In this document: positions 967-60,595 of the stretch, one piece after another
Layout of the letters: every line of letters starts with the position of its first letter
How positions within the stretch are numbered: the stretch's first letter is position 1
NCBI GenBank assembly: GCA_024654525.1
Contig: JANLHI010000031.1
Location: 18,774 to 82,773 of the forward strand
DNA from: Patescibacteria group bacterium
Lineage (GTDB): Bacteria > Patescibacteriota > Minisyncoccia > UBA6257 > 2-01-FULL-56-20
Direction: 5' to 3'
DNA: 64,000 nt
Notes under the pieces: model-generated
Databases searched by the model: none
What the model was told of the DNA's origin: nothing
Seen by the model: the letters and a program-made list of their open reading frames with translations, nothing else
Translations under genes and position numbers: made by a program

Positions 967-1194
967 CCGAATGAGATGATGGCAGATTGAAAATACATTT
1001 ACTTTGTTTTGCAGAAGCTACGAAAGTAATTTTGTAGACAACGCGAGCAAGGCGAGTGCATATCGGGTTCTTGCCTCGCGGATCGCACGCGATGGGCGAG
1101 AACATATAAGCAAGTCCACCGTTGTTCCATGGAATGGAACATGGTGAGATTAAGTCAGCATTGGGATGGGTGGTAGGCCCAGTATGTTCGGGTA

Positions 1195-1300
1195 TCGGAT
1201 TGCGGATGTCAGATTAAGGATGATACATTTCAGATTTTGGATTATTTCCTTTGTCTGATTTTTTAAATTTAATAATTTGATATCTGAAATCCGATATCCG
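1195..1300 (+). repeat. 5' flanking processing-stem segment of 23S (tcagat/atctga palindromic motif family)
   Basis: ggatgtcagat...atctgaaatccgatatccgaatttggg is complementary to the 3' flank at 4722-4802 (caaatttcggatttcggac...), the expected RNase III-type stem enclosing the 23S. Confidence 0.5.
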
Positions 1301-1571
1301 AATTTGGGCATAAGGGCGAATGGTGGATGCCTAGACATCAAAAGGCGAAGAAGGACGCAGCGTAACGGCGATACGCCTCGGGAAGGTGTGTAGCAACCGA
1401 TGATCCGAGGATTTCCGAATGGGGAAACCTTACTGCGCAAACCGCAGTAGCCGTGCCGTTTATCGGTACGGAGCATACCCGCTGAAGTGAAACATCTCAG
1501 TAAGCGGAGGAATAAAGAACAATAGTTATTCCCCAAGTAGCGGCGAGCGAAAAGGGAAGAGCCTAAACTTA

Positions 1572-1648
1572 TCAGATGTCGGACTTTGGATGTCAGATTT
1601 CAGATTTTTTTATCTGACGTTTGGTTTCTGAAGTCCGATGTCTGATGA
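1572..1648 (+). repeat. IVS-like imperfect palindromic insertion in 23S (copy 1 of the tcagat/atctga family)
   Basis: gatgtcggactttggatgtcagatttcagatttttttatctgacgtttggtttctgaagtccgatgtctga; inserted after the gtagcggcgagcgaaaaggg block (about E. coli position 270). Confidence 0.55.
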
Positions 1649-1679
1649 GGGTCATAAGGACAGAACTCTTTTCTAGTTT

Positions 1680-1745
1680 ATAACCTATAACTGATACTTT
1701 ATGACTTCGGTCATTTATTATTGGTTATTCGTTATAGGCTAGTTA
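1680..1745 (+). repeat. AT-rich hairpin insertion in 23S (ATAACC/GGTTAT family, UUCG-loop core)
   Basis: tttataacctataactgatactttatgacttcggtcatttattattggttattcgttatagg; absent from canonical 23S at this position. Confidence 0.45.
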
Positions 1746-1927
1746 GTGGAAAAGTTACAAAATCATCAGTTAGTCGAATTGTGCTGGAAAGCCAAGCCAA
1801 AGACGGTGATAGCCCCGTAGACGAAAACAGATGATCTTTTTAGTTTTGTTTCTTGAGTACTTCGAGGTCAAACAGCTCCGAAGGAAGTTGCGAGTACTAT
1901 CTCGTAAGGCTAAATACTTTTGATGAT

Positions 1928-1964
<37 letters not shown>

Positions 1965-2044
1965 TAGGCCGGTAAGGCCGTTGAAATAGAACCTGAAACC
2001 ATTCGCTTACAAGGAGCAGAAGCACTAACGTGCGTAGCACACAA

Positions 2045-2110
2045 CTTGAAATTTATAACCTATAATTCAAATAACAATAATTTGTTATTGGTTATTTGGT
2101 TTGGGTTATT
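2045..2110 (+). repeat. AT-rich hairpin insertion in 23S (ATAACC/GGTTAT family)
   Basis: aatttataacctataattcaaataacaataatttgttattggttatttggtttgggttattggtt. Confidence 0.4.
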
Positions 2111-2772
2111 GGTTGCGTGCTACGCGCGCAGTGTAACTGTGTGCCTATTGAAGAATGAGCCAACGACTTATTATATATTGCTTGTCTAACCCCGCTCAGC
2201 GGGGGGAGGCACAGGGAAACCGAGTCTGAATAGGGCGTCGTTCCGCCGCAAGGTGAGACGGTGCAGTATATAATAGACCCGAAGCCGGAAGAGCTTGCCT
2301 TGGCCAGGATGAACTTCGGTGAAAACCGAAGGGAGGTCCGAACCGGTTGGTTGTGCAAAACCTTCGGATGAGCCGAGGTAAGGAGTGAAAAGCTAATCGA
2401 TTCCGGTAATAGCTGGTTCTCTCCGAAATATATTTTCGTATAGCGGTATACGTAGTCCTGGGGGTAGAGCACTGGATGATCTGTAAAGGTCGAAAGACCG
2501 ACAGATCAATCAAACTCCGAATACCAGAGGCGCAAGTATACTAGTTAGAATGTGGGGGCTAAGCTCCATGTTCGCGAGGGAAAAAGCCCAGACCGCAAGC
2601 TAAGGTCCCAAAATGTATGCTCAGTGTTAAAGGTAGTTTTCTGCCAGAGACAGATAGTAGGTTGGCTTAGAGGTAGCCATCCTTTAAAGAGTGTGTAACA
2701 ACTCACTATTCGATGGCAGGGGGCGCCGAAAATGTACCGGGGCTTAAGCATACTACCGAAGCTGCGGATTGT

Positions 2773-2846
2773 TCAGATGTCGGACTTCGGATGTCAGATT
2801 TCAGATTTTTTATCTGACGTCTGGTTTCTGAAATCCGATATCTGAG
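2773..2846 (+). repeat. IVS-like palindromic insertion in 23S (copy 2)
   Basis: cagatgtcggacttcggatgtcagatttcagattttttatctgacgtctggtttctgaaatccgatatctga, near-identical to copy 1. Confidence 0.55.
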
Positions 2847-3471
2847 CAGTGGTAGGAGAGCATTCTCTATGCACTGAAGGTTGACCCGTGAGGGCGACTG
2901 GAGCGTAGAGAAGAGAAAATGTTGGCATGAGTAGCCACAATCCCAATGAGAAATTGGAACCCCGAAAATCCAAGGTTTCCGTGGCACTGGCAATCAACCA
3001 CGGGTTAGGCGGCCCTAAGGCAATGGTGAAAACCGCAGCCGATGGACAGCTGGTTAATATTCCAGCCCAGCCGTATGTGTTAAGTTGGGGGACGGAGGAG
3101 ATAAGATGATGTGTCTTATTGGTTTGACATCCATATCCCGTACCTGTTGCGTCTCACTGTTGTGAGGACGTAGGAGTATGAAGAAAGGAGTGTGGAGTAT
3201 AGAGCAAGAATTTCTTGGCTCCTACTCCTTATTCCCATATCCTGCGCCGTCGCAAGAGCGAGGCGTAACAGCGCGGAGTTGGGAACGTCAGGAATTTACC
3301 TGGCGAACATTATCGAATTGCCTTCCAAGAAAAGCCCAATGTATTGCATATGGCTTCCGTACCGTAAACCGACACAGGTGGGTGAGGCGAGAAGCCTAAG
3401 GGGAACGAGTGACCTGCCGCTAAGGAACTCGGCAAAAAAGCGGCCGTAAGTTAGCAATATGGCCTGCCCTG

Positions 3472-3582
3472 TTCGGATGTCGGACTTTGGAGGTCAGATT
3501 TCGGATGACGGATTTCAGATTTTTTTTCTGACATCCGATTTCTGAGATCTGATATCTGAAATCCGATGTCTGAACTGGGCCG
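3472..3582 (+). repeat. IVS-like palindromic insertion in 23S (copy 3, longest)
   Basis: ttcggatgtcggactttggaggtcagatttcggatgacggatttcagattttttttctgacatccgatttctgagatctgatatctgaaatccgatgtctga, located in the domain III/IV variable region. Confidence 0.55.
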
Positions 3583-20526: not shown

Positions 20527-21933
20527 ATGGAATACAAACCTACAATCGGACTCGAAGTCCATGTGGAGCTCAAAACCCGAACAAAGATGTTTTGCGATTC
20601 GCTCAATGACGCGGATGAAAAGAAGCCGAATAAAAACACTTGTCCCGTGTGTTTGGGACATCCGGGGACGCTCCCTGTGCCGAATAAAGAGGCAATTAAA
20701 CATGTTATTCGTGTGGGGTTGGCGCTTGGCGGGAAAATAAATCCGGTCACGAAATTTGACCGTAAGAACTATTTCTACCCCGATCTTCCGAAAGGGTATC
20801 AAATCTCGCAATACGATCAGCCACTTGTGACCGGTGGGAATCTTCTAGGAATAAAAATACGACGCATTCATTTGGAAGAAGACACGGGAACGCTTGTTCA
20901 CGCACAAGGATCGAGTTTGGTTGATTTTAATCGTGCCGGTATGCCACTTATGGAACTTGTGACAGAGCCCGATATTACAAGCGCGGAAGAAGCTGCCGAT
21001 TTTGGAAGAGAGCTTCAACTGATTCTGCGTTATTTGGGAGTTTCGGATGCTGACATGGAAAAGGGGCACATGCGTCTTGAAGCGAACGTAAGTCTAAATA
21101 TGGGAACTAAAGTAGAGATTAAGAATATTAACTCGTTCAAGGCAGCACGGGACGCGACACTTTACGAATTAGAGCGCCAAGAAGAACTGCTTCGCGATGG
21201 GAAGGACGTGGCGCACGAAACGCGGGGGTGGGATGAAGCAAAACAAATAACAGTGAGCCAACGTTCAAAGGAAGAGGCGCATGATTATCGCTATTTTCCC
21301 GAGCCGGATATTCCGCCGTTTGAGACGGTGGCGTTTGAGCCGGATATTCTCGCAAGGGAGTTACCCGAACTTCCGGCGGCGAAACGTACGCGATTTATCC
21401 AAGAGTACAAGATAGATGAGGGTCAATCTGCGGTATTAATCAGTAGCCCGAAACTTGCCGAGTATTTCGAAGAGTCGGTGAGCGAATTAAAGGAAATGGA
21501 GCGTGATGCATCGGCATCTTTGCTTGCGAATTATCTTATTAACGATGTTCGTGCCGTTGCGGTAGAGAATGGGGTGTCGCTTGAGCAATCGCATGTAAAT
21601 CCAGAGCATCTCGCGCATCTTGTGGTTCTTATTATACGGGAGAAGATAACAAGTAGGCAGGCGAAAGATATGCTTGAGAAAATATTTCAAAGTGATGTGG
21701 ATCCTGAGGATATTTTAAAAGATGAAAGTTATTATGCGATTTCGGATTCCGGTGAACTTGATGTGATAGTACAGGATGTGTTTGCGGAAAATTCCCAAGC
21801 GGTTGCCGATTATAAAAAAGGAAAGATCCAGAGTTTGCAGTTTCTTGTCGGGAAGGCGATGGGAAAACTCAAAGGGAAGGGGAATCCCGAGGTATTGCGG
21901 GAATTGTTTATGGAATATCTTAAGAAGAAATAA
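20527..21933 (+). CDS. gatB: Asp/Glu-tRNA amidotransferase subunit B
   Basis: IGLEVHVEL, CPVCLGHPGTLP, YFYPDLPKGYQISQ, HLEEDTG. Confidence 0.9.
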   Translation: MEYKPTIGLEVHVELKTRTKMFCDSLNDADEKKPNKNTCPVCLGHPGTLPVPNKEAIKHVIRVGLALGGKINPVTKFDRKNYFYPDLPKGYQISQYDQPLVTGGNLLGIKIRRIHLEEDTGTLVHAQGSSLVDFNRAGMPLMELVTEPDITSAEEAADFGRELQLILRYLGVSDADMEKGHMRLEANVSLNMGTKVEIKNINSFKAARDATLYELERQEELLRDGKDVAHETRGWDEAKQITVSQRSKEEAHDYRYFPEPDIPPFETVAFEPDILARELPELPAAKRTRFIQEYKIDEGQSAVLISSPKLAEYFEESVSELKEMERDASASLLANYLINDVRAVAVENGVSLEQSHVNPEHLAHLVVLIIREKITSRQAKDMLEKIFQSDVDPEDILKDESYYAISDSGELDVIVQDVFAENSQAVADYKKGKIQSLQFLVGKAMGKLKGKGNPEVLRELFMEYLKKK

Positions 21934-22034
21934 TCAACATTCTTTGTTAGAATATACGCAGAACCTTTATAGCAAAATAAGGGGTCTGCGGGTTTCCGAC
22001 CGCATTTTTTCGGATCGATTCAGAAGGATCGCCT

Positions 22035-22736
22035 ATGTTTGGAAATCTGTTTAGTGCGCGCCGTTTGAAGTGGCGTGGACCGCTCGAGAGCAGAGCAGCA
22101 CAGATTCTTAGAGGGAAGAATTTTATTAGCGGAAAACAATCTTCCGGGGTGTGGAGAAGAAATGCCCCGAGCGTTGGTAAGGTTGTTCTTCGCTACGGCG
22201 AAGAAACGCTCATCAATTGCGCGTCACAAAATCGGGACAGAGCGGCGAATTGGTTTCTTGTGTGGATTTTTGGTCTCTCATTGCGAAAACAGAGAGAGTT
22301 CACCGAGGGGCACCAGTTCCCTATAATTTGTTTCGATAGCGGTAGCGATGAAGATCCGGTAGATCGCAATTGGTGGATAAGGGAATCTGAGAATTATTGG
22401 GCTGATAGGGATTATGGGGATAATGGGTATTGGCTCATGGATTTCTCGGGTAAATTCTCCGGCATGAATTGGAACGATCAAGAGCAGAAGATTAGACGGA
22501 GTGGAGAGTTGCGTGCCCCTGAGTTGCTCGTGGCGGAAGCTGCGATTTCGATTCTACAGGTACATCAGATGTCGGTAATTCTTGATTGGTTTCACTTCGG
22601 ACCAACCATTGATTCTCAAGGACGTCGCATACGAATAGGGGAATTTAATGGTCGAGGAATGGTGATTGTAGGAGAACCTAAGAATGTCGATGATGTAATG
22701 TTGCGCGTAGTAACATTATATCCGCGCGATTTTTAG
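22035..22736 (+). CDS. hypothetical protein (Trp/Asp-rich)
   Basis: 233-aa ORF; no family signature. Confidence 0.35.
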   Translation: MFGNLFSARRLKWRGPLESRAAQILRGKNFISGKQSSGVWRRNAPSVGKVVLRYGEETLINCASQNRDRAANWFLVWIFGLSLRKQREFTEGHQFPIICFDSGSDEDPVDRNWWIRESENYWADRDYGDNGYWLMDFSGKFSGMNWNDQEQKIRRSGELRAPELLVAEAAISILQVHQMSVILDWFHFGPTIDSQGRRIRIGEFNGRGMVIVGEPKNVDDVMLRVVTLYPRDF

Positions 22737-22779
22737 TGTGAAACAAAGGACTGCTCTGGCGCACAATGCTGGGGCAGTT

Positions 22780-23709
22780 TCATTTTTTTCTCCACTGAAT
22801 ATTTTTATCTTTTCGGAACCATGTCATTTGCCGGCGGGCATAGCGCCATGTGTTGAGCTTCATCTGACGTACTGCTTCGTCGAGCGATATTTTTTTCTTG
22901 AAGTATTCAATAATCTCACGGTAGCCGATTGCATCAAGCGCTTTTACGCTGTCATATTTTCTATAAAGTCCTTGAACTTCTTTGAGAAGCCCATTTTGCA
23001 TCATTATGTCTACGCGCGTGTCGATGCGATGTCGGAGTGTTGCGAGAGGAGTTTCGATGCCGATGATTTTTGCATTAAAGAGGGGAGCGCTCTTTTTTCT
23101 TTGCGCAGTGAAAGGTCTTCCTGTAACGAGCGTGACTTCAAGTGCGCGGATCACGCGTCTTGGGTTTTTGGGGTCTACAATATATGCCGCTTCCGGATCA
23201 AGTGCTACGAGTTTTTTGAATATGTATTCAGTTCCCTTATTTTTTACTTCTTCCTCTAATTTTCTCCGTAGCGTTTCATTTGCGGCAACATGTGGAATGT
23301 CCAAATTATCTACTACCGCTTTCACATAGAGCCCTGTGCCTCCTACAAGAATCGGGAATTTCCCGCGCTTGAGAATTTCTCGGACGACTTTCACTGCGTC
23401 GCATTTGTATTCCGCGACAGTATAATCCTCATTAGGATTTTTGATATCAATAAGGTGGTGGGGGATTCCTTCGGAAAAGTAGGTATTTTTTCGAAATTTT
23501 GAATTTTGAATTTTGAATTTTCCGCGAAGCGGCTTCGCGGTCCCTATATCCATTTCACGATATATTTGTCGTGAGTCTGCGGAAACAATCTCGCCACCAA
23601 GCTTCTTGGCGAGTGCTATGGAGAGTGCTGTTTTTCCGCTTGCAGTGGGACCTACGATCACAAGAATTTTGGGCTTCACGTAGTTATCCATTAAAATTAC
23701 GTTATACAA
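22780..23709 (-). CDS. miaA: tRNA dimethylallyltransferase
   Basis: GPTASGKTALS P-loop, DSRQIYREMDIGTAKP, LVGGTGLY. Carries an in-frame low-complexity insertion (see findings). Confidence 0.85.
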   Translation of the reverse strand: MYNVILMDNYVKPKILVIVGPTASGKTALSIALAKKLGGEIVSADSRQIYREMDIGTAKPLRGKFKIQNSKFRKNTYFSEGIPHHLIDIKNPNEDYTVAEYKCDAVKVVREILKRGKFPILVGGTGLYVKAVVDNLDIPHVAANETLRRKLEEEVKNKGTEYIFKKLVALDPEAAYIVDPKNPRRVIRALEVTLVTGRPFTAQRKKSAPLFNAKIIGIETPLATLRHRIDTRVDIMMQNGLLKEVQGLYRKYDSVKALDAIGYREIIEYFKKKISLDEAVRQMKLNTWRYARRQMTWFRKDKNIQWRKK

Positions 23710-23751
23710 CCTATCGGTTTTATAGCTACACTTGTATGGTATTATTTTACC

Positions 23752-24321
23752 ATGCGGGGTAGGCGATCAAAAGAGCGCTTTGGTCCTGTAATGCAGAAAA
23801 TTCTGCTCTTTTTGAAAGCTGGTGTTGCCTTGTCTCTTTCTGGAAATCCAAGTTCTTACTTTCGAGTATTATCGCAAGCGTCAAAAGAATGGCAGAAAAT
23901 TAGTCAGCGTTCGCTTCATGAGGCAATAAAGCGTCTCTACGAGTCAAAACTTGTGGATGTTAAAGAAAAGAGCGATGGAACGGCGCAGATCGAATTATTG
24001 GACGCTGGGAGAAAAAAGATTTTGGAATATAATCTCGCCACACTTAAACTTAAAAGACCAAAGCATTGGGATGGGATGTGGCGTGTGGTGATTTTTGATA
24101 TTCCCGAAGACATAAAGAAAGGAAGGCGTGCGCTTGGGAGTACACTTTTGCGGATTGGGTTTTATCCGATGCAGAAAAGCGTGTTCATTTATCCCTTTGA
24201 ATGCAAAGATGAGATTGATTTTATTGTTGAGGTTTTCGGACTGAAACCATATGTGCGTTTTTTGCTGGTAAAAGAAACCGACATAGATTTACATCTTAAA
24301 ACCGAATTTGGGATAAAATAA
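23752..24321 (+). CDS. mini-PaaX-like protein: N-terminal winged helix plus Cas2-like ferredoxin-fold module (paralog 1)
   Basis: WDGMWRVVIFDIPEDIKKGRRALGSTLLRIGFYPMQKSVFIYPFEC matches the PaaX central segment (WDGKW...) and the Cas2 core pattern (V.YDI...RR...L...G.RVQ.SVF.C). It is a paralog of 59959-60513. Confidence 0.55.
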   Translation: MRGRRSKERFGPVMQKILLFLKAGVALSLSGNPSSYFRVLSQASKEWQKISQRSLHEAIKRLYESKLVDVKEKSDGTAQIELLDAGRKKILEYNLATLKLKRPKHWDGMWRVVIFDIPEDIKKGRRALGSTLLRIGFYPMQKSVFIYPFECKDEIDFIVEVFGLKPYVRFLLVKETDIDLHLKTEFGIK

Positions 24322-24334
24322 AAGGAATAATAAA

Positions 24335-24370
24335 CTGCGGTTATAAAACCTATCGGTTTTATAACCGCAG
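24335..24370. promoter_or_regulatory. 36-bp perfect palindrome (16-bp arms, 4-bp spacer), cognate-site candidate for paralog 1; may also act as a terminator
   Basis: ctgcggttataaaacc-tatc-ggttttataaccgcag; a degenerate copy of the core (caacctatcggttttatag) lies at 23702-23724, just upstream of the gene. Confidence 0.5.
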
Positions 24371-24392
24371 TTGAAGAGGAACACTCATCGGC

Positions 24393-26207
24393 TCAAAGTG
24401 GGATTTGGTTGTTTTTTCTTTCATGGGGCTCAAGACGGATTTGTTTTCCCTCGATTTCTTTTTTAATTCCTGCCACAAATTCATTGATACTTGGTTCATT
24501 CGTTTGTTTTCCATCAGAAGTTACGAACGGGGCTATGGTATAAGGTCTCACATTCACTGTATCCGTTTTTTCTTCACGTTCTCCGATTATGACCATATAC
24601 GGAATTTTCTGCATTTCCGCTGCGCGGATGCGTTTCCCCAATGTTTCATCCGCATGTTTCATTTCCACGCGGACACCTTCTTTTTGGAGCGCATCGCGTA
24701 CTTTTGCGCCATAGTCGGCGAATTTGTCGCTCACGGGGATTATTGCCACTTGTATGGGGGAAAGCCAGAGGGGAAACGCGCCCGCGAAGTGTTCGATAAT
24801 AATGGCGAGATAGCGTTCGATAGCGCCCATAATTGCGGCGTGGAGCATCACAATGCGCTCATCCTCGCTTTTCTCATTCACGCAGGTAAGGTTGAAACGC
24901 TCCGGCATATTCATGTCGAGCTGAATGGTTGCAACCTGCCACTCCCGTCCGATGGAATCTTTTCCCATAAAATCTATTTTGGGACCATAGAAAGCGGCTT
25001 CTCCAGGAGCTTCAGGTGCGTCCACTCCTTTCTCGCGGGCGATGTCGCGAAGTATTCCCTCGGCTTTTTTCCAACTCGAGGGGTTGCCGAGATATTTCTC
25101 GGGGTGCTTAGGGTCATGGAGCGAGAGCCGTACTTTGAGTTCGAACCCGATAGCGCCGTAGAATTCATGCACGATATCCCAAATTTTCAAAAACTCTTCC
25201 TTTACTTGTGATTCGCGGCAGAACACATGCGCATCATCCTGCGTGATGCAGCGTACGCGCGCGAGTCCGGCAAGCTCGCCACTCTGCTCGTCGCGGTAGA
25301 CCATGGTGGTATTCGCATAGCGCTGGGGAAGGTCGCGATAGCTCCACTTTTTGCGGGCGTAGATTTGCGTGTGGTGGGGGCAGTTCATCGGCTTCATCGC
25401 AAACTCGTGGCCTTCCCTTGTCGTAATACGGAAGAGTTCGTCTTTAAACTTATCCCAGTGGCCACTCCGCTCGTAGAGGTCTTTCTTGGTGATATGAGGG
25501 ATTTCAACTCGCTCATACCCGCGTGCGCTGCGGAGTTCCCAGACAAAGGCGTCAAGCGTATTCCTGAGAAGCGTGCCTTTCGGAGTCCAAAGAGGGAGTC
25601 CTGCGCCCACGAGTTCGGAGAACGTAAAGAGGTCAAGTGCCGGACCTAGTTTTTTGTGGTCCCGCTTTTCCGCCTCCGCGCGCATCGCGAGGTATTCATC
25701 GAGTTCCTTCTTCGTCGCGAACGCGAGCCCATAAATGCGGGTAAGCATTTTGTTTTTCTCGTCTCCACGCCAGTATGCGCCCGCTACACGGTCGAGTTTG
25801 AAACTGTGTGGATCAATCTCGGCAAGGGGGAGTGTATGCCCTCCTTTGCAGAGATCTACAAACCCACCGCAGGTGTAGAAGGTAAGTGTTTTCTTTTCCT
25901 TGGCGAATTCATTCGCGAGTTCCATCTTATATTTATTCCAATCAAACTCTTTTTTTACTTCCTCGAGCGTGACGGTGTTGCTCGTCCACTCCGTCCAGCG
26001 CGGCAAAAGCTCCTGCATTTTCTTTTCGATTGTGAGAAGGTCGTTTTCAGAAATTTGCGCAGGTAACTCAAAATCCTGATAAAACCCGTTCTCGATTGCA
26101 GGGCCGATGGCGTTTTGCGCGCCCGGGTAAAGTTCCCGTACCGCCATAGCGAGGAGATGGGCGAGGGAGTGGCGAATGACTTCGATATTTTCGTGTGTGA
26201 TCTTCAT
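24393..26207 (-). CDS. thrS: threonyl-tRNA synthetase (lacks the N-terminal TGS domain)
   Basis: HSLAHLL (editing-domain start), class II motifs, HRAIMGAIERY-type; 604 aa. Confidence 0.9.
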   Translation of the reverse strand: MKITHENIEVIRHSLAHLLAMAVRELYPGAQNAIGPAIENGFYQDFELPAQISENDLLTIEKKMQELLPRWTEWTSNTVTLEEVKKEFDWNKYKMELANEFAKEKKTLTFYTCGGFVDLCKGGHTLPLAEIDPHSFKLDRVAGAYWRGDEKNKMLTRIYGLAFATKKELDEYLAMRAEAEKRDHKKLGPALDLFTFSELVGAGLPLWTPKGTLLRNTLDAFVWELRSARGYERVEIPHITKKDLYERSGHWDKFKDELFRITTREGHEFAMKPMNCPHHTQIYARKKWSYRDLPQRYANTTMVYRDEQSGELAGLARVRCITQDDAHVFCRESQVKEEFLKIWDIVHEFYGAIGFELKVRLSLHDPKHPEKYLGNPSSWKKAEGILRDIAREKGVDAPEAPGEAAFYGPKIDFMGKDSIGREWQVATIQLDMNMPERFNLTCVNEKSEDERIVMLHAAIMGAIERYLAIIIEHFAGAFPLWLSPIQVAIIPVSDKFADYGAKVRDALQKEGVRVEMKHADETLGKRIRAAEMQKIPYMVIIGEREEKTDTVNVRPYTIAPFVTSDGKQTNEPSINEFVAGIKKEIEGKQIRLEPHERKNNQIPL

Positions 26208-26296
26208 GCGGTCAATAATACCAGTTTTTGTGCGAGAACGGGAGGGCTTGTGTTCCCATGATTTCTATGTCAAAAATAACCCAGTTTTTTGATATT

Positions 26297-26947
26297 ATGA
26301 ATATGAACAATACATTAGAAAAAAGGTTTCAATTCCTTCTCGCACTTGGAACGGTAATCGGATGGGACGATATTCCTTCCGAACAAATGGACATTTTTCT
26401 CAGTGCATGTGCGGATGATCCGACTTTGCGCGAGCATTTCGCCATTTTTTCGAAAAACGGTTTTCGAATGAAAATGCCGAATTTTTTTCGTGACACGGAA
26501 GAGATTGCAATTCAAATTCCGCTTCCGCCGATTCCGTGTCCCACACTTCCACAACTCCGGAAAAAATTTTCTTGGATTAAGGAATCAGACGGGATAGAGT
26601 ACGACATTTCAAGCATGGAACCGACTACTCTAAAACTTGGCACAGTACTTATGCTAAACGAGACAGAAGGAATAAAGGGAGTTGAGTACGAATGGCGTCT
26701 TACCCCGAATATTCATTTGTGTCTTGGGTATCAGCATGCGGTATGGCTTGCGGAGCATCAAGACGAATTTCCTTCTCTCGTACAATTTCTTGGAAAAATA
26801 TACATTGATTTTCCGGGGATTGTAGTCGTGAGTGCTGAAGGGGATCGACGTACGTTTGCACTTAACGGACTTGAGGATAGGTGGGTGGTATATTGTCATC
26901 CGATTCGGGACGGTCTTCGTCAAACAGGGAGGATTGCATATTCTTAA
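26297..26947 (+). CDS. hypothetical protein
   Basis: The ORF is open from 26228; the ATG at 26297 (MNMNNTLEK...) is the more plausible start. No family signature. Confidence 0.4.
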   Translation: MNMNNTLEKRFQFLLALGTVIGWDDIPSEQMDIFLSACADDPTLREHFAIFSKNGFRMKMPNFFRDTEEIAIQIPLPPIPCPTLPQLRKKFSWIKESDGIEYDISSMEPTTLKLGTVLMLNETEGIKGVEYEWRLTPNIHLCLGYQHAVWLAEHQDEFPSLVQFLGKIYIDFPGIVVVSAEGDRRTFALNGLEDRWVVYCHPIRDGLRQTGRIAYS

Positions 26948-41727: not shown

Positions 41728-43098
41728 GTGGCGGATATCGCGCAAGAGTTGATTTTTTTCTTTAAAAAACGCATACTGTTCTCATATTTCAGCTCTTGTC
41801 TTATGGCATTAAAAAAGAAAAAGAAGAAAGGGATAAAGCGTGCGCCCAAAAAGCGTACGGTAGAAAAGCGGGGTACTGCGAAAAAGAATAAAAACAAGAA
41901 TAAGAATAAGAATAAGAAGGCAAAACATCCGGTGGCAATGCATCGGGAGAAACTTTCTTTGGCGGCACGTGCGAAGAGAAAGGCGGTTCGCGCAAAAGAG
42001 AAAGACGAGAAACAGCGAAAATTGAATGAGCAGACATTACAAGATCTTGTGGATCGCGGGCGTCCGAGGGGATTTGTGACTGATAACGAAATTCTCTACC
42101 ACTTTCCGAACATAGAAGGAAATGTAACGTTTCTTGAAGAAATCTATGACCGACTCGAGAAGGCTGGTGTAAAAGTGGTGGAAACGGGTGGGCTCATTGA
42201 TGCCGCGAAAGGCGAGGTGACTAAAGAAGAGCTTGAGAAGGCTACGAGTTTTGAGGGGGAAGTGCCGGATGCGGTGCAGATGTATTTAAAAGAAATCGGA
42301 AAAACTCCTTTACTTACGAAAGATGAAGAGCGCGAACTTGCAAAGCGTGTCGAGCGGGGGGATGAGGAAGCACGCCAGCGACTTATGAAAGCGAATCTTC
42401 GACTGGTGGTTTCGATTGCGAAGCGGTACATCAACCGTACCCCACATCTTTCGATTCTTGACTTGGTGCAAGAGGGGAACATTGGTTTGTCACGCGCGGT
42501 AGAGAAATTCGATTACCGTAAAGGATTTAAGTTTTCAACATATGCCACATGGTGGATTCGGCAGGCGATTACGCGTGCGCTTGCGGATCAATCCCGCACG
42601 GTACGTATTCCCGTGCATATGGTGGAGACAATTTCAAAATATACCCAGATGCGCCGTCAGTTGATTCAGGAATTGGGACGTGAACCGCTTGCGGAGGAGA
42701 TTGCCGCAGAGATGAGTATGGACGTCGAGAAGATTCGACATATTCAAAAAATTTCGCAGGAGGTGCTTTCGATTGAAACACCTATCGGTGATGAAGAGGA
42801 TTCAACGCTTTCCGATTTTATTCCTGATGACAAAAATCCGACCCCCGCCCAGCTCACTGCGCGTGCACTGCTTCGCGATCTTATTAAGGATATTCTTGTG
42901 GATCTCACCGAACGCGAACAGAAAATTTTAAAAATGCGATTTGGACTCGAAGACGGAGTTACTCACACGCTTGAAGAAGTGGGGAAAGCATTCGGTGTTA
43001 CCCGCGAGCGCATCCGGCAAATCGAGGCGAAGGCGCTTGAAAAAATCCGCGATCACGACAAAGCGAAGGCACTCGAAGGGTTTAAGGATATTACGTAA
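41728..43098 (+). CDS. rpoD: RNA polymerase sigma factor RpoD (sigma-70)
   Basis: Regions 2-4 ([50 protein letters not shown], region 4 HTH). The Lys-rich N-terminus is encoded by aag/aat repeats. Confidence 0.9.
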
Positions 43099-43136
43099 TA
43101 GTTTATAAGTTTTGAAGTGAAAAGTTCATAAACTAC

Positions 43137-43170
43137 AACATTCCAACATTCTCCAGAATGTTGGAATGTT
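43137..43170. terminator. 34-bp perfect palindrome (16-bp arms) downstream of rpoD, no U-tract
   Basis: aacattccaacattct-cc-agaatgttggaatgtt; preceded by a second hairpin at 43101-43136. Confidence 0.4.
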
Positions 43171-43176
43171 GTTAAC

Positions 43177-43839
43177 GTGCAAGAACTCAAATATGCGCGG
43201 TGGCTTGCATTTTATCCTTTTTATGCTATAAATTACCCACTCGAAAAATTACCAAAAAACAACCGTCAAGTCGCTGCTCATATCAGATTAGGAAAGAAAT
43301 ATATGGACCCGATTCTTTGGTTTCTCGAAACTATTCTCCGAGGTTTCACCAAGGCCAGGCTTGAGAAAGAGGAAGCAGCTTTTATTCAAGACAACATACA
43401 GAAGCACCGTATTGCGCTTTGGATAAACGTCACGGCAATGGTTTTTATCTTTCTCGGTTTACTGCACACAAAAACGGACGCGATTGGGACAGTTGTGAGT
43501 TCGCTTATTGCACCGGTGATGGTTTTGGGTGGTGCCTGGTTCTCAGTAAGTTTTGGGGGCGTACCCAAAAAACTCATTAGTGTTGCCATGTCGACGACAT
43601 TGTGGATGTTTGCAGCATTTGTTGTTTCGTTCTCAACCATGCTTGTCGCGGTGGCGTTTGTCACTTCGCCCTACCTCTGGCCAGTGCTCGCGTTTGTGTA
43701 TTTGGCTGTGCTCGTAGGGTGTATCCAATATGACACCGCCGACGGGCTCAAGGCGGGGTTGGACGAAACAATGTTGCGTCACTCGAGAGCCGCCCTTCAG
43801 TACTATCACAAAGAGGGAATCGAACCGGAAGAGAAATGA
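43177..43839 (+). CDS. hypothetical integral membrane protein (4-5 TM)
   Basis: Hydrophobic helices; no family signature. Confidence 0.4.
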   Translation: MQELKYARWLAFYPFYAINYPLEKLPKNNRQVAAHIRLGKKYMDPILWFLETILRGFTKARLEKEEAAFIQDNIQKHRIALWINVTAMVFIFLGLLHTKTDAIGTVVSSLIAPVMVLGGAWFSVSFGGVPKKLISVAMSTTLWMFAAFVVSFSTMLVAVAFVTSPYLWPVLAFVYLAVLVGCIQYDTADGLKAGLDETMLRHSRAALQYYHKEGIEPEEK

Positions 43840-59016: not shown

Positions 59017-59188
59017 TTGCGCTAATGAATTTGCGTGCATCACGCGGATTTATGAAGCAGTTCGTTTACAATTGAAGGCGACTGTTTTGAAATAAATGTT
59101 TCTGTTGCAAGAATACACATCGGACATTGTGTAATGTTTTGGTGGGAGATTGTGTTTTTGCGATGGAACAAATTGGAGGAAAGTATTA

Positions 59189-59779
59189 ATGAAAGTGTTT
59201 AAATTGGATTCTTCGGGCGCGCAATTTGCGATTCCCGAAGTAATGGCGCGTGAGCGCCGTTACGCATTCTTTCATGGAGGAAGTCTTGAATGTGGGAAAT
59301 ATTGCTTGCGCTTGAGCAAGACAGACTTCCCCATCACTCAAAAGAACGGGTGGTACAAAGAGGAGTTCGCGCTCCTTCCTTCAAAACCACCTCAATGGGA
59401 TGAGGTGGGGAATGAACTTCGCGTGATGAAGAGAAGTAAACTTCCCCCTACGGGGGAATGCATTGTGTTGCTCAACACCACGAGCGTACAACACAGCAGA
59501 GGAGGAATGCTCCATTCATGGAACGCTGGCGTGAAGGTGTTGGGTAAGGGAGTAGATGTGAAGCCGATGCACGAAGGAAATAAGGCTGCACGAAAATCGG
59601 TGGAAATCGAATACCCAATCCTTGCGTGTTCTCATGGCGCAGAGTTTGCATGGGAGTGCGAGGGACGAGATTACCATGCACAATGGGATGGTGCCATATG
59701 GCAGGTAACGGAAGAAATACCGATGTTACCGATGCATGGCGAAAGCCACCTTGCAACACGGGGATTTCTCCGTTTCTAG
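59189..59779 (+). CDS. hypothetical protein (Trp/His/Cys-rich, soluble)
   Basis: ATG 59189 preceded by a GGAGGA SD; the ORF is open from 59150; no family signature. Confidence 0.4.
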   Translation: MKVFKLDSSGAQFAIPEVMARERRYAFFHGGSLECGKYCLRLSKTDFPITQKNGWYKEEFALLPSKPPQWDEVGNELRVMKRSKLPPTGECIVLLNTTSVQHSRGGMLHSWNAGVKVLGKGVDVKPMHEGNKAARKSVEIEYPILACSHGAEFAWECEGRDYHAQWDGAIWQVTEEIPMLPMHGESHLATRGFLRF

Positions 59780-59843
59780 GTCTGTGGTTTTCGGGGGTAC
59801 GGCTCCTTATGAGTCAAAAGGGAAAACAGCAAAATCTAAACTA

Positions 59844-59884
59844 CGGCTCGGAACAACAATGTTCCGAGCCGTGTTACTTTTTTA
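59844..59884 (+). terminator. rho-independent terminator
   Basis: cggctcggaacaacaatgttccgagccg followed by tgttacttttttacc. Confidence 0.6.
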
Positions 59885-59899
59885 CCTCAAATCTCCAAT

Positions 59900-59935
59900 T
59901 GTCATAAATAAACGCCATGGCGTTTATTTATGACA
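59900..59935. promoter_or_regulatory. 36-bp perfect palindrome (16-bp arms, 4-bp spacer), upstream copy
   Basis: tgtcataaataaacgc-catg-gcgtttatttatgaca; identical to the copy at 60544-60579. Confidence 0.6.
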
Positions 59936-59958
59936 ATATGATATGTTATCTTGTGTAT

Positions 59959-60513
59959 ATGCCGAGGGGTATCGGGAAGATTCAGAAAAAAGTATTGCTG
60001 TTGTTGCAAGGGGGTTTTGCGCTTGGACTTGCGAGTTCTCCTCAAAAACAACTCAAGGTTCTCAAAGGTATTAAGAAAGAATGGGATGCGATTGATAGAA
60101 GATCGCTCTATCAAACAATTCGGAGTCTCTATCGCAGTGAGTTGATTGATTTTCGAGATAGAGGAAAAGGAAGAGTGGACATGGTACTTACGAAGCAGGG
60201 AGCGCGTAGGGCATTGAGTTTTAACCTTGATACGCTCTCTATAAAGCGACCGATACGGTGGGATAAAAAGTGGAGAATTGTTTGTTTCGATATACCAAAA
60301 GAACAAAAAAGAGCACGGGACGCTTTGCGATCTCACTTGTTGCGTCTTGGATTTTATCCTTTCCAAAAAAGCATTTTCATATTTCCTTATTCTTGCAACG
60401 ACGAACTTGATTTTTTGATTGAGATTTACGAAGTGAGGGCGTATGTGCGGCAAATCGTTGCAGAAGAGATAGATAACGCACTACATCTCAAAACTATATT
60501 TCATATCTCCTAA
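59959..60513 (+). CDS. mini-PaaX-like protein: winged helix plus Cas2-like module (paralog 2)
   Basis: WDKKWRIVCFDIPKEQKRARDALRSHLLRLGFYPFQKSIFIFPYSC and the C-terminal ...LHLKTIF are both shared with paralog 1. The track ORF from 59917 begins inside the palindrome (MAFIYD...); the ATG at 59959 (MPRGIGKIQKKVLLLLQGG) aligns with paralog 1. Confidence 0.55.
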   Translation: MPRGIGKIQKKVLLLLQGGFALGLASSPQKQLKVLKGIKKEWDAIDRRSLYQTIRSLYRSELIDFRDRGKGRVDMVLTKQGARRALSFNLDTLSIKRPIRWDKKWRIVCFDIPKEQKRARDALRSHLLRLGFYPFQKSIFIFPYSCNDELDFLIEIYEVRAYVRQIVAEEIDNALHLKTIFHIS

Positions 60514-60543
60514 TATTTGCGTTGAAGATGTGGTGTGTATACC

Positions 60544-60579
60544 TGTCATAAATAAACGCCATGGCGTTTATTTATGACA
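60544..60579. promoter_or_regulatory. 36-bp perfect palindrome, downstream copy (40 bp including cc/gg flanks)
   Basis: Identical sequence to 59900-59935; sits between the convergent stops of the paralog-2 gene and tsaD. Confidence 0.6.
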
Positions 60580-60595
60580 GGGAGGTAGGATGGGT

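Follow-up and report, generated by a model that had tools for sequence, protein, structure and literature searches.

Two related genes lie in the window, by which we mean the whole 64-kb stretch of DNA that was analyzed (Table 1). Gene A has miaA and thrS as neighbors, and tsaD and valS also occur in the neighborhoods of the two genes. The gene A ORF is present as the preliminary description gave it. Its claimed paralogy with gene B held as well, with 46% identity over 178 residues (BLASTP E = 1e-62). No further paralogs were found in the 64-kb window. There are no paa catabolic genes adjoining either gene. A conserved operon partner was sought among 295 flanking ORFs and rejected; the largest neighbor cluster was miaA, with 8 of the 295.

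Table 1. Positions of the genes, domains, codons, and sites discussed in the text, numbered within the window
Feature	Position	Strand	Remarks
Upstream site of protein A	23694-23733		Degenerate copy; dyad between 23713 and 23714; core 23703-23724
Candidate extended -10 element TGgTATTAT	23737-23745	+	Read from sequence; 6 nt before ATG
Gene A	23752-24321	+	189-aa protein, two domains
Gene A N-terminal winged-helix-type domain			Residues ~1-100
Gene A codon E57	23920-23922		
Gene A Cas2-fold domain	24061-24318		Residues ~104-189
Gene A codon D116	24097-24099		Invariant
Gene A codon K122	24115-24117		
Gene A codon R125	24124-24126		Invariant
Gene A codon R126	24127-24129		Specificity residue
Downstream site of protein A	24333-24372		Perfect 18+4+18 palindrome; dyad between 24352 and 24353
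Upstream site of paralog B	59898-59937		Perfect palindrome; core 59900-59935; dyad between 59917 and 59918; 42 nt before ATG
Gene B	59959-60513	+	184-aa paralog; D at alignment position 126, Q at position 57
Downstream site of paralog B	60542-60581		Core 60544-60579, identical to upstream copy; between convergent gene B and tsaD

The domain folds were established by computation. Both proteins match Pfam PaaX_M (PF20803, "central Cas2-like domain") with E values of 8.5e-20 and 4.4e-21. No Pfam match to the PaaX_C effector (phenylacetyl-CoA) domain was found in protein A or B; protein A ends at residue 189, and family members are 176 to 213 aa long. The Pfam model for the PaaX N terminus gave no match at E values up to 1. 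TIGR02277 aligned to residues 50 to 172 (model positions 32 to 150; E = 6.4e-5), and its scores of 22.6 and 23.9 bits did not reach the equivalog level (cutoff, 264.55). Scores against Pfam Cas2 (PF09827) lie around the threshold of 23.8 bits, with A below it (21.8 bits) and B above it (24.4 bits). Those against TIGR01573 were 21.9 and 24.4 bits (cutoff, 24.5). An AF2 model of the N-terminal domain has helices followed by a beta-hairpin, with moderate confidence (pLDDT 55 to 77). The C-terminal domain has the Cas2 ferredoxin-like fold with strand 1 ending in an Asp, and PaaX is the closest solved structure. The family profile matches Cas2 SSO8090 over beta1-alpha1-beta2. Among 162 family sequences, residues D107, D116, E119, E154, and E160 show little or no variation. 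A PDB sequence search with the single protein returned only spurious matches to designed proteins.

Each gene is bracketed by two palindromes. The downstream site of gene A, ctgcggttataaaacc-tatc-ggttttataaccgcag, lies where gene A and thrS converge, between their 3' ends. It was described at 24335 to 24370, and this held; perfect symmetry reaches even further, to the limits in Table 1. The upstream site lies in the divergent control region of miaA and gene A. It includes caacctatcggttttatag at 23707 to 23725, and its 22-nt core, TATACAACCTATCGGTTTTATA, has 1 mismatch to the downstream core, where 100 dinucleotide-preserving shuffles gave an expectation of 0 matches. Over 43 nt, positions 23692 to 23734 are 79% identical to positions 24331 to 24373. 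The upstream copy is degenerate, with 9 of 15 arm pairs symmetric, and differs from the downstream copy at -14, -15, -16, and -18, counting outward from the dyad. It retains in both halves the T at -17, the G at -13, the A/T tract from -11 to -9, and C-C-K-A from -4 to -1.

The preliminary description was right that a degenerate upstream copy exists, and its coordinates (23702 to 23724) were slightly off. The 42-bp divergent region that it gave between miaA and gene A is true only if miaA starts at TTG 23709; with ATG 23691 the gap is 60 bp. It did not mention that gene B, too, has a 36-bp palindrome on each side, the two copies being identical. The unit is site-gene-site rather than a gene with a single palindrome. 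The two sites of a pair are 639 bp (gene A) and 644 bp (gene B) apart, start to start. A scan of the 64-kb window found only four family-type palindromes, two per gene, and each site occurs just twice.

Gene-site association and residue-base covariation across the family

The association of gene and site is a trait of the whole family, as shown by computation. We surveyed 160 loci from Patescibacteria (CPR) genomes and metagenomes. At least one site lies within 300 bp of the gene in about 94% of these relatives, and about 65% have one per side. Sites are 74-fold denser beside the gene than elsewhere in the same loci. There were 120 long palindromes in 466 kb from 80 genome loci. Among them, 85 were within 200 bp of the gene, and 84 of these 85 have a center of the C-K-A-T-M-G type. 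A permissive detector found at least one site at 77 of 82 genes and sites on both sides at 55 of 82, with densities of 2.6 per kb near the gene versus 0.035 per kb elsewhere. The result was replicated in 70 metagenome loci (downstream site in 60, upstream in 49, both in 44, and none in 5). In 54 of 82 loci, the two flanks share a word of at least 13 nt; of 400 mismatched pairs, only 9 did so. Downstream sites accompany convergent next genes (31 of 36) as often as tandem ones (34 of 42). Homologs in other CPR genomes were thus checked for accompanying palindromes, and flanking sites of the same geometry were almost always present. Solo sites do exist. The family contains about 380 clusters at 50% identity (E values up to 1e-30). 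Genomes of roughly 1 Mb carry several paralogs, two of which lie inside the present window.

The anatomy of the sites is likewise shown by computation. All sites have the center C-K-A-T-M-G, with the dyad between A and T, an A/T tract at 8 to 11 on either side of the dyad, and variable arms. Among 168 half-sites, the C at -3 is invariant, 162 have A at -1, and 74% have T at -17; only A or T occurs from -11 to -8. The center is the most conserved part of the site. The preliminary description had called four of these bases a spacer, and that reading failed. Within any one locus, positions -4, -9 to -13, and -15 to -17 are constant and symmetric, although they vary across the family. The stretch from -5 to -8 is loose (22 to 38% asymmetric).

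Across about 140 relatives, residue 126 of the protein predicts base -4 of the site. This residue is in helix 1 of the Cas2-fold domain, beside the invariant R125. Asp or Glu goes with G, Lys or Arg with C, and Asn with A. In the training set, the rule was met in 34 of 39 proteins with Asp or Glu, 9 of 10 with Lys or Arg, and 9 of 20 with Asn. In an independent test set with less than 90% identity to any training protein, the counts were 14 of 15, 20 of 20, and 9 of 9, or 43 of 44 unambiguous cases. Overall, the prediction is right in about 90% of cases. On the tree, base -4 changed at least 26 times and the class of residue 126 at least 36 times. The top two APC-corrected pairs are the covariation of residue 126 with base -4 (z = 13.6 and 10.7). 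The next-ranked pairs join winged-helix residues 57, 54, and 53 to positions -12 to -16. The covariation is itself a computed result. An indirect cause cannot be fully excluded, for example through a neighboring residue such as K122.

Proteins A and B differ at both positions. Protein A has R126 and E57, and its sites have C at -4 and G at -13. Protein B has D126 and Q57, and its sites have G at -4 and T at -13. Among coresident paralogs, the specificity positions differ in 19 of 20 pairs. The claim that dimeric paralogs had diverged together with their sites is therefore supported by comparative evidence, with no binding experiment. The rule for residue 126 holds separately in upstream and downstream sites, and that for residue 57 and base -13 is as strict downstream as upstream. 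Since downstream sites obey the rules as well as upstream ones do, they are not only terminators. This is a computational check.

Proposed mechanism and known systems

The best overall reading is likely that of a coevolving repressor-operator pair, in which a symmetric dimer binds both sites and represses its own gene. All of the evidence is computational. Dimer binding, repression, and looping or a roadblock are inferred; there are no experimental binding, transcription, or structural data for any member of the family.

In this reading, the gene A product would be a sequence-specific DNA-binding protein with counterparts of PaaX domains one and two but not of the third, which binds the ligand. 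It may bind a roughly 36-bp palindrome as a symmetric dimer joined through the Cas2-fold domain. The recognition helix of the winged helix (residues about 53 to 57) would contact the outer arm at 12 to 16 on either side of the dyad. Helix 1 of the Cas2 fold, with K122, the invariant R125, and the variable residue 126, would contact the conserved center. The A/T tract would separate the two contact zones. Residue 126 is predicted to dictate the base 4 nt on either side of the dyad. It is likely that the C-K-A-T-M-G center is read by the Cas2-fold domain. Paralog B would work in the same mode on a different palindrome that does not cross-react.

The upstream site of gene A ends 3 nt ahead of the candidate extended -10 element. 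The position of this element implies a leaderless or nearly leaderless mRNA; this is inferred from the sequence, and the start site is unmapped. Across the family, a TATAAT-like hexamer (at least 5 of 6) lies 6 to 9 nt before the in-frame ATG in 42% of genes versus 25% of control genes, only a moderate enrichment. A dimer bound 3 nt ahead of the -10 element, which itself precedes the ATG by 6 nt, would block RNA polymerase. Gene A would be repressed, and probably the divergent miaA promoter too.

The downstream site would be a second true binding site. It is most likely to serve as an auxiliary operator, with a loop over about 640 bp, or as an insulating protein roadblock. At locus A it may also be a hairpin terminator for thrS. 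No helical phasing was seen in the site-to-site spacing, which speaks neither for nor against a loop of 650 bp. Regulation of the neighboring gene was rejected as the reason for the downstream site, since its presence is independent of the neighbor's orientation. It is not obvious what use a regulator would have if the ends of its own gene are the only targets that can be detected, and this leaves open a nonregulatory function.

The closest comparison is PaaX (Escherichia coli W structure 8A39), which represses the paa operons in response to phenylacetyl-CoA. The E. coli PaaX operator is TGATTC-N27-GAATCA, with a span of 39 bp, and steric hindrance is the means by which the protein represses its own promoter (PMC9493321). 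The family shares the widely spaced inverted repeats and the overlap with its own promoter, although binding by the family is inferred. Its outer contact positions, 12 to 17 on either side of the dyad in a palindrome of roughly 36 bp, match the PaaX operator geometry, and the inferred regulatory logic agrees as well. Unlike PaaX, the family lacks a C-terminal effector domain, and its genes are not found near paa genes. It keeps the Cas2-type motifs FDIPE and QKSVF, and by profile it is nearer to real Cas2 than to the solved PaaX. The center of its operator is conserved and covaries with the Cas2-fold domain. Two sites bracket the gene, and each genome has several orthogonal paralogs.

The family also matches motifs of Cas2 (VapD/Cas2 ferredoxin-fold superfamily), namely, the D that closes strand 1 and the Q-x-S of strand 3. 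In Cas1-Cas2 complexes, the helix-1 face of the Cas2 dimer lies on duplex DNA, and R16 of E. coli Cas2 clamps the protospacer duplex (PMC10491678). We take R16 to be at the start of helix 1, aligned to residues 122 to 126, from a hand alignment. The family differs in its fusion to a winged helix and in contacts that are apparently, by inference, base specific and not limited to the backbone. No cas1 gene or CRISPR array was a conserved neighbor in the flanks of 82 loci, and no repeat array was found in the 64-kb window.

In autoregulated repressor systems with DNA loops, such as lac (O1/O2), gal (OE/OI), and deo, a main operator at the promoter is paired with a second site hundreds of base pairs away. 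The family is similar in its second cognate site, here about 640 bp downstream; looping or tetramerization is hypothetical. It differs in that the second site is past the stop codon, so that a loop would enclose the whole gene of the regulator, and in that no other target genes are evident. REP sequences that flank RAYT genes and dif-like module boundaries are further cases of a small gene bracketed by palindrome copies. The family has no HUH or Tyr transposase or Xer motif. Its palindromes are not dispersed like REP sequences, with two copies of each in 64 kb, and the copies covary with the DNA-reading residues of the protein they enclose.

Literature searches on PaaX combined with Cas2-like, CPR, or palindrome turned up no account of the family or of its sites. 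CPR bacteria have very few recognizable regulators, and their gene control is almost unknown. The family is common in CPR and is predicted to supply several orthogonal copies per genome with binding sites attached; because the sites come with the genes, specificity can be read from sequence alone. The recognition rule for residue 126 and the base 4 nt on either side of the dyad can be tested directly. The pairs would be natural orthogonal repressor-operator pairs and potentially useful parts. The results suggest that, in the wider PaaX family, the Cas2-like "dimerization" domain contacts the long PaaX operator at its middle. According to a 2022 review, no structure of a PaaX-operator complex had been solved (PMC9493321). 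The known DNA-facing surface of Cas2 would, by inference, extend from backbone clamping to base reading. It remains a puzzle that a regulator brackets its own gene and apparently binds nowhere else.

Alternative explanations

The downstream palindrome of gene A could be a mere intrinsic, bidirectional terminator between gene A and thrS, its likeness to an operator being meaningless. It is placed between two 3' ends, and a transcript of either strand would fold into a hairpin of -28 kcal/mol (z = -8 to -9). On the minus strand, an 18-bp stem is followed by TTATTATTCCT, which passes a simple terminator scan in the thrS direction. We consider this reading very unlikely. There is no T run after the palindrome on the plus strand, the direction of gene A. 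Across the family, downstream sites keep the 126/-4 and 57/-13 rules as strictly as upstream sites, and they are equally common with convergent and tandem next genes. T content beyond the arm is alike for downstream and upstream sites (0.43 to 0.47). The innermost stem (-5 to -8), which matters most for a hairpin, is the least symmetric part, whereas the outer, protein-specific positions are kept. A dual role as binding site and thrS terminator is not excluded. An RNA or DNA hairpin as the main constraint was also rejected, given the asymmetry of the inner stem, and the data could be explained without G-T tolerance. The two copies do show differences that look compensatory (36 double versus 22 single), but these fall at protein-read or tolerated positions; this count is biased because both copies were picked as palindromes. 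An Rfam scan of 23300 to 24800 gave nothing near gathering scores for a known RNA family.

A bolder reading makes site-gene-site a mobile or recombining cassette with the palindromes as its ends or recombination sites. Helix 1, with the invariant R125 and the "code" residue 126, would lie on the dyad, and the Asp pair of the Cas2 fold, over the invariant center, would nick, cut, or recombine the palindrome. The position of the Cas2 catalytic Asp is kept (D116, invariant), as are the other acidic residues listed above, and some Cas2 proteins are double-stranded DNA nucleases (PDB 4es2 is among the Foldseek matches). The high conservation of the center fits cutting there. Neighbors are very diverse (295 flanking ORFs in 230 clusters), and in the gatB/miaA/thrS neighborhood the gene varies both in its orientation and in the side of miaA on which it lies. 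At some loci, asymmetric centers (GATA versus TATC) have opposite orientations in the two copies, and the solo sites are a further point for a cassette. If true, the catalytic version would be a free-living relative of the Cas2-repeat interaction, in which two 36-bp palindromic repeats enclose a 600-bp "spacer," the protein's own gene.

Both the cassette and its catalytic form appear very improbable. Near-identical gene copies were not found; paralogs in the same genome are about 45 to 60% identical, and their sites differ. Each site is present only twice in 64 kb. The order miaA-X-thrS is retained down to about 54% protein identity (loci L001, L081, L137, and L084), which suggests long vertical inheritance. 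A phage or mobile origin was rejected; a search of 2.9 million viral contigs returned no relatives, PHROGs gave no match, and PADLOC gave only weak Cas2 matches. Insertion at the dyad predicts that the inner pair and the outer pair of half-sites are most alike. The opposite was observed, with 3.55 (inner-inner) and 3.25 (outer-outer) mismatches versus 2.4 to 2.95 within a site. A simple inversion of the cassette between locus L036 and the window was not clean, as extra ORFs differ between the loci. The weaker form, in which the Cas2 fold reads bases without catalysis, is part of the repressor-operator reading that we prefer.

The protein-site pairs might instead have a nontranscriptional role in the chromosome, as a boundary or insulator, a barrier to replication forks or transcription, or bridging marks, with autoregulation as a by-product. 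A genome of roughly 1 Mb has several orthogonal paralogs, and this 64-kb window has two. There are almost no sites away from the genes, the downstream site is present whatever the orientation of the neighbor, and the protein has no sensor domain. This role is unlikely. It has no positive evidence, and the sites are symmetric, unlike known polar fork barriers, which are asymmetric. That the upstream site abuts the -10 element is consistent with ordinary repression.

Two site-gene-site units in the window

Genes A and B are the only members of the family in the whole 64-kb window. The presence of gene A was confirmed. The claim of the preliminary description that genes A and B are paralogs held, with 46% identity over 178 residues (E = 1e-62). 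Both proteins match the Pfam model PaaX_M ("PaaX central Cas2-like domain") at ~1e-20 each and score close to the threshold of the Cas2 models. The Pfam PaaX_C domain is absent from both.

Both genes are bracketed by two palindromes, the predicted cognate sites, and the unit at both loci is therefore site-gene-site. The spacing within the pairs is 639 bp at locus A and 644 bp at locus B. These four are the only family-type palindromes in the entire window. The upstream core match of gene A had an expectation of 0 in shuffles. The preliminary description had reported a perfect palindrome 3' of gene A, which held exactly, and the symmetry runs further. Its degenerate upstream copy is real, but its coordinates were off by a few bases. 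The preliminary description had taken the gene and one palindrome as the unit, which is corrected to two sites per gene, and it missed the double flanking of gene B. Its "4-bp spacer" failed; those bases belong to the most conserved segment of the site.

Coordinates of genes, sites and other features in the window
Feature	Position	Description
Repeat blocks (1185-3580)	1185-1310, 1576-1651, 2770-2851, 3470-3579	Four related blocks of GATGTCGGA / TCAGATTT / ATCTGA units, 7/14-nt periodicity
gatB / miaA / thrS neighbourhood	20527-26207
ORFs adjoining the A and B modules	22035-22736, 26228-26947, 59150-59779	~210-240 aa
GAATTTT repeat	23501-23521	Three tandem copies within the miaA coding region (minus strand)
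Upstream site of A	23703-23724	22-nt core, 1 mismatch to downstream core; site end ~23733
Promoter-like element of A	23737-23745	TGgTATTAT; ATG (23752) 6 nt further on
Gene A	23752-24321 (+)	189-aa ORF
Downstream site of A	24333-24372	Perfect 18+4+18 nt palindrome
Other palindrome	43135-43172	Perfect 18-2-18 palindrome ACAACATTCCAACATTCT-CC-AGAATGTTGGAATGTTGT, between plus-strand ORFs 41728-43098 and 43177-43839
Terminator	59843-59872	13-bp stem, 4-nt loop, then T run; typical terminator 3' of ORF 59150-59779, shortly before the gene B operator
Sites of B	59900-59935 and 60544-60579	Identical 36-bp palindromes, one on each side of the gene
Gene B	59959-60513 (+)	Paralog of A

Distribution and anatomy of the sites

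More than 750 homologues of 176-213 aa were found at 90% clustering, and every named one was from Patescibacteria/CPR. Among 1.84 billion cluster representatives, a profile search retrieved 380 clusters with E no higher than 1e-30. We sampled 80 loci from species-representative genomes and 80 from metagenomes. Of the 120 long palindromes in the genome set, 85 were located within 200 bp of a family gene, a zone that makes up 7% of the DNA. The centre C-K-A-T-M-G was present in 84 of these 85. Centres of the gene-proximal palindromes were CGATCG (37), CTATAG (25), two mixed forms (14), CGGTCG/CGACCG (6), CCATGG (1) and CCATAG (1). Distant palindromes in this set were ordinary G+C-stem terminators with different centres.

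With a permissive detector, the genome set contained at least one site at 77 of 82 genes and a site on each side at 55 of them. Site density was 2.6 per kb near the gene versus 0.035 per kb elsewhere. The 70 metagenome loci used for replication contained a downstream site at 60, an upstream site at 49, both at 44 and neither at 5. The preliminary description had asked whether homologs elsewhere carry flanking palindromes, and they do so family-wide (77/82 genes and 65/70 metagenome loci). The median distance from the upstream dyad to the approximate start is 49 bp, and the downstream dyad lies 41 bp past the stop. Dyad-to-dyad spacing is 593-828 bp across the family. Both sites occur regardless of the orientation of the adjacent gene.

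Position numbers count outward from the dyad in each half-site. At the centre, -3 is always C, -2 is G or T and -1 is A. Position -4 is G, A or C, never T. Positions -11 to -8 are exclusively A/T, positions -16 to -12 and -7 to -5 are variable across the family, and position -17 is T in 74% of half-sites. The two site copies were compared within each of 96 loci. Positions -4, -9 to -13, and -15 to -17 differ freely between family members, yet any one locus keeps them constant and symmetric. Constraint is weak at -5 to -8 and -14, where the two halves often disagree. The pattern is consistent with two protein-contact zones per half, about one helical turn apart. It does not match a hairpin, for which the inner stem would matter most.

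Some loci of relatives depart from the paired layout. L084 (1350/1434) and L121 (339/421) each carry a tandem pair of upstream sites, 82-84 bp apart, and L022, L025, L068 and L074 have a third or fourth cognate site locally. Solo family-type palindromes away from any family gene were found at L033:3642 and L038:663. The other palindrome of the window has a near-identical motif in L001 (~1257-1294), close to the miaA 3' end. These two may represent a second conserved palindrome family with another centre.

Residue-base covariation and the Cas2 fold

APC-corrected mutual information was calculated for alignment columns of the protein against positions of the half-site. Residues 126 and 122 stood out, both against base -4 (corrected z = 13.6 and 10.7, respectively), followed by residues 57, 54 and 53 with positions -12 to -16. 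A rule for residue 126 was derived on the genome loci and tested on 62 metagenome loci with <90% identity to any training protein. Asp/Glu goes with G at -4 (partner strand C) in 34/39 training and 14/15 test cases. Lys/Arg goes with C (partner strand G) in 9/10 and 20/20, and Asn goes with A in 9/20 and 9/9 unambiguous cases. These pairings are the textbook residue-base rule. The rule is valid for upstream and downstream sites taken separately. On an average-linkage tree, a minimum of 26 changes was counted for base -4 and of 36 for the residue-126 class, and joint switches were seen in pairs as close as 76-85% identity. The association is therefore not explained by shared ancestry.

Both proteins of the window match their own sites. 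For protein A (R126, E57), -4 is C and -13 is G; for protein B (D126, Q57), -4 is G and -13 is T. Specificity positions differ in 19 of 20 pairs of co-resident paralogs. Comparative evidence alone supports the earlier proposal of paralogous dimeric binders that diverged together with their sites.

The AlphaFold2 model has a mean pLDDT of 77, with 86-92 in the C-terminal half, and its top Foldseek matches are Cas2 proteins. The family profile aligned with SSO8090 from strand 1 through helix 1 to strand 2, a match that takes in the Asp ending strand 1 and the helix-1 Arg. Residues 122-126 are located where helix 1 begins, in its first turns. Cas2 R16 clamps the DNA duplex in the E. coli Cas1-Cas2-protospacer complex (PMC10491678), and we place it in the same helix-1 region only through a hand alignment with the E. 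coli Cas2 sequence. There is thus precedent for a helix 1 that faces DNA. Base-specific reading by this helix is likely and apparently new, although it is inferred without binding data.

The E. coli PaaX operator, TGATTC-N27-GAATCA, spans 39 bp, and PaaX blocks its own promoter through steric hindrance; no PaaX-DNA complex had been solved as of a 2022 review (PMC9493321). The site span and autoregulatory logic of the family therefore match PaaX. The family protein falls outside PaaX proper because the effector domain is missing, its equivalog score is too low and its gene is unlinked to paa genes. Nor is it a CRISPR Cas2, because its gene is unlinked to cas1 or an array. Comparative evidence favours a two-domain "mini-PaaX" of the PaaX/Cas2-fold kind, whose operators flank its own gene and whose recognition rule can be read from sequence.

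Regulation and rival explanations

TATAAT-like hexamers lie 6-7 nt before the ATG in many relatives. A match of at least 5/6 was present in 42% of family genes versus 25% of control genes, and a perfect match in 15% versus 4%. The spacing is exactly 6-7 nt in L001, L019, L022, L033, L065, L066, L072, L074, L078 and at 23737-23754 of the window. The hexamer position suggests leaderless mRNAs in these CPR bacteria, inferred from sequence alone. The operator would cover the -35 and spacer region of the gene's own promoter, from which autorepression is inferred. At locus A, occupancy of the upstream site would probably repress the divergent miaA too.

By the residue-base rule, the downstream site is likely a genuine cognate site, though without binding data. 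Downstream sites have no special T flanking and occur irrespective of what follows them. The locus A downstream hairpin has a value of -28 kcal/mol, and its stem is followed on the minus strand by TTATTATT; it might additionally terminate thrS. Looping over ~650 bp, a roadblock or an insulator are ordinary options that remain possible. No helical phasing was found in site-to-site spacing, which carries little information at such distance.

One rival explanation is an active mobile element, with site-gene-site as the moving cassette. The neighbours of family genes are highly diverse, and in the gatB/miaA/thrS neighbourhood the family gene occurs on either side of miaA in either orientation. Asymmetric centres are at times flipped between the two site copies, and a few solo or extra local sites are known. 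Against this, paralogs A and B are old (46% identity), each site sequence is present as two copies, and the miaA-X-thrS order is retained in L001, L081, L137 and L084. No viral or PHROG relatives of the family were found, and similarity among the half-sites runs counter to insertion at the dyad. Mobility is very unlikely, with the question partly open. Another rival is nuclease or recombination activity of the protein. Several Cas2-fold acidic residues are invariant, including the Cas2 catalytic-Asp position. Because they are predicted to adjoin the invariant site centre, such activity is not excluded, but it has no positive support and is very improbable. The self-flanking mini-PaaX reading carries a puzzle of its own. 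The protein has no sensor domain and its sole detectable targets bracket its own gene, yet several orthogonal copies occur per ~1-Mb CPR genome.

The gatB/miaA/thrS neighbourhood of the window recurs in L001, L031, L033, L036, L044, L047, L081, L084, L137 and L154, with the family gene beside miaA in four arrangements. The GAATTTT copies in the window encode part of the miaA insertion KFKIQNSKF.
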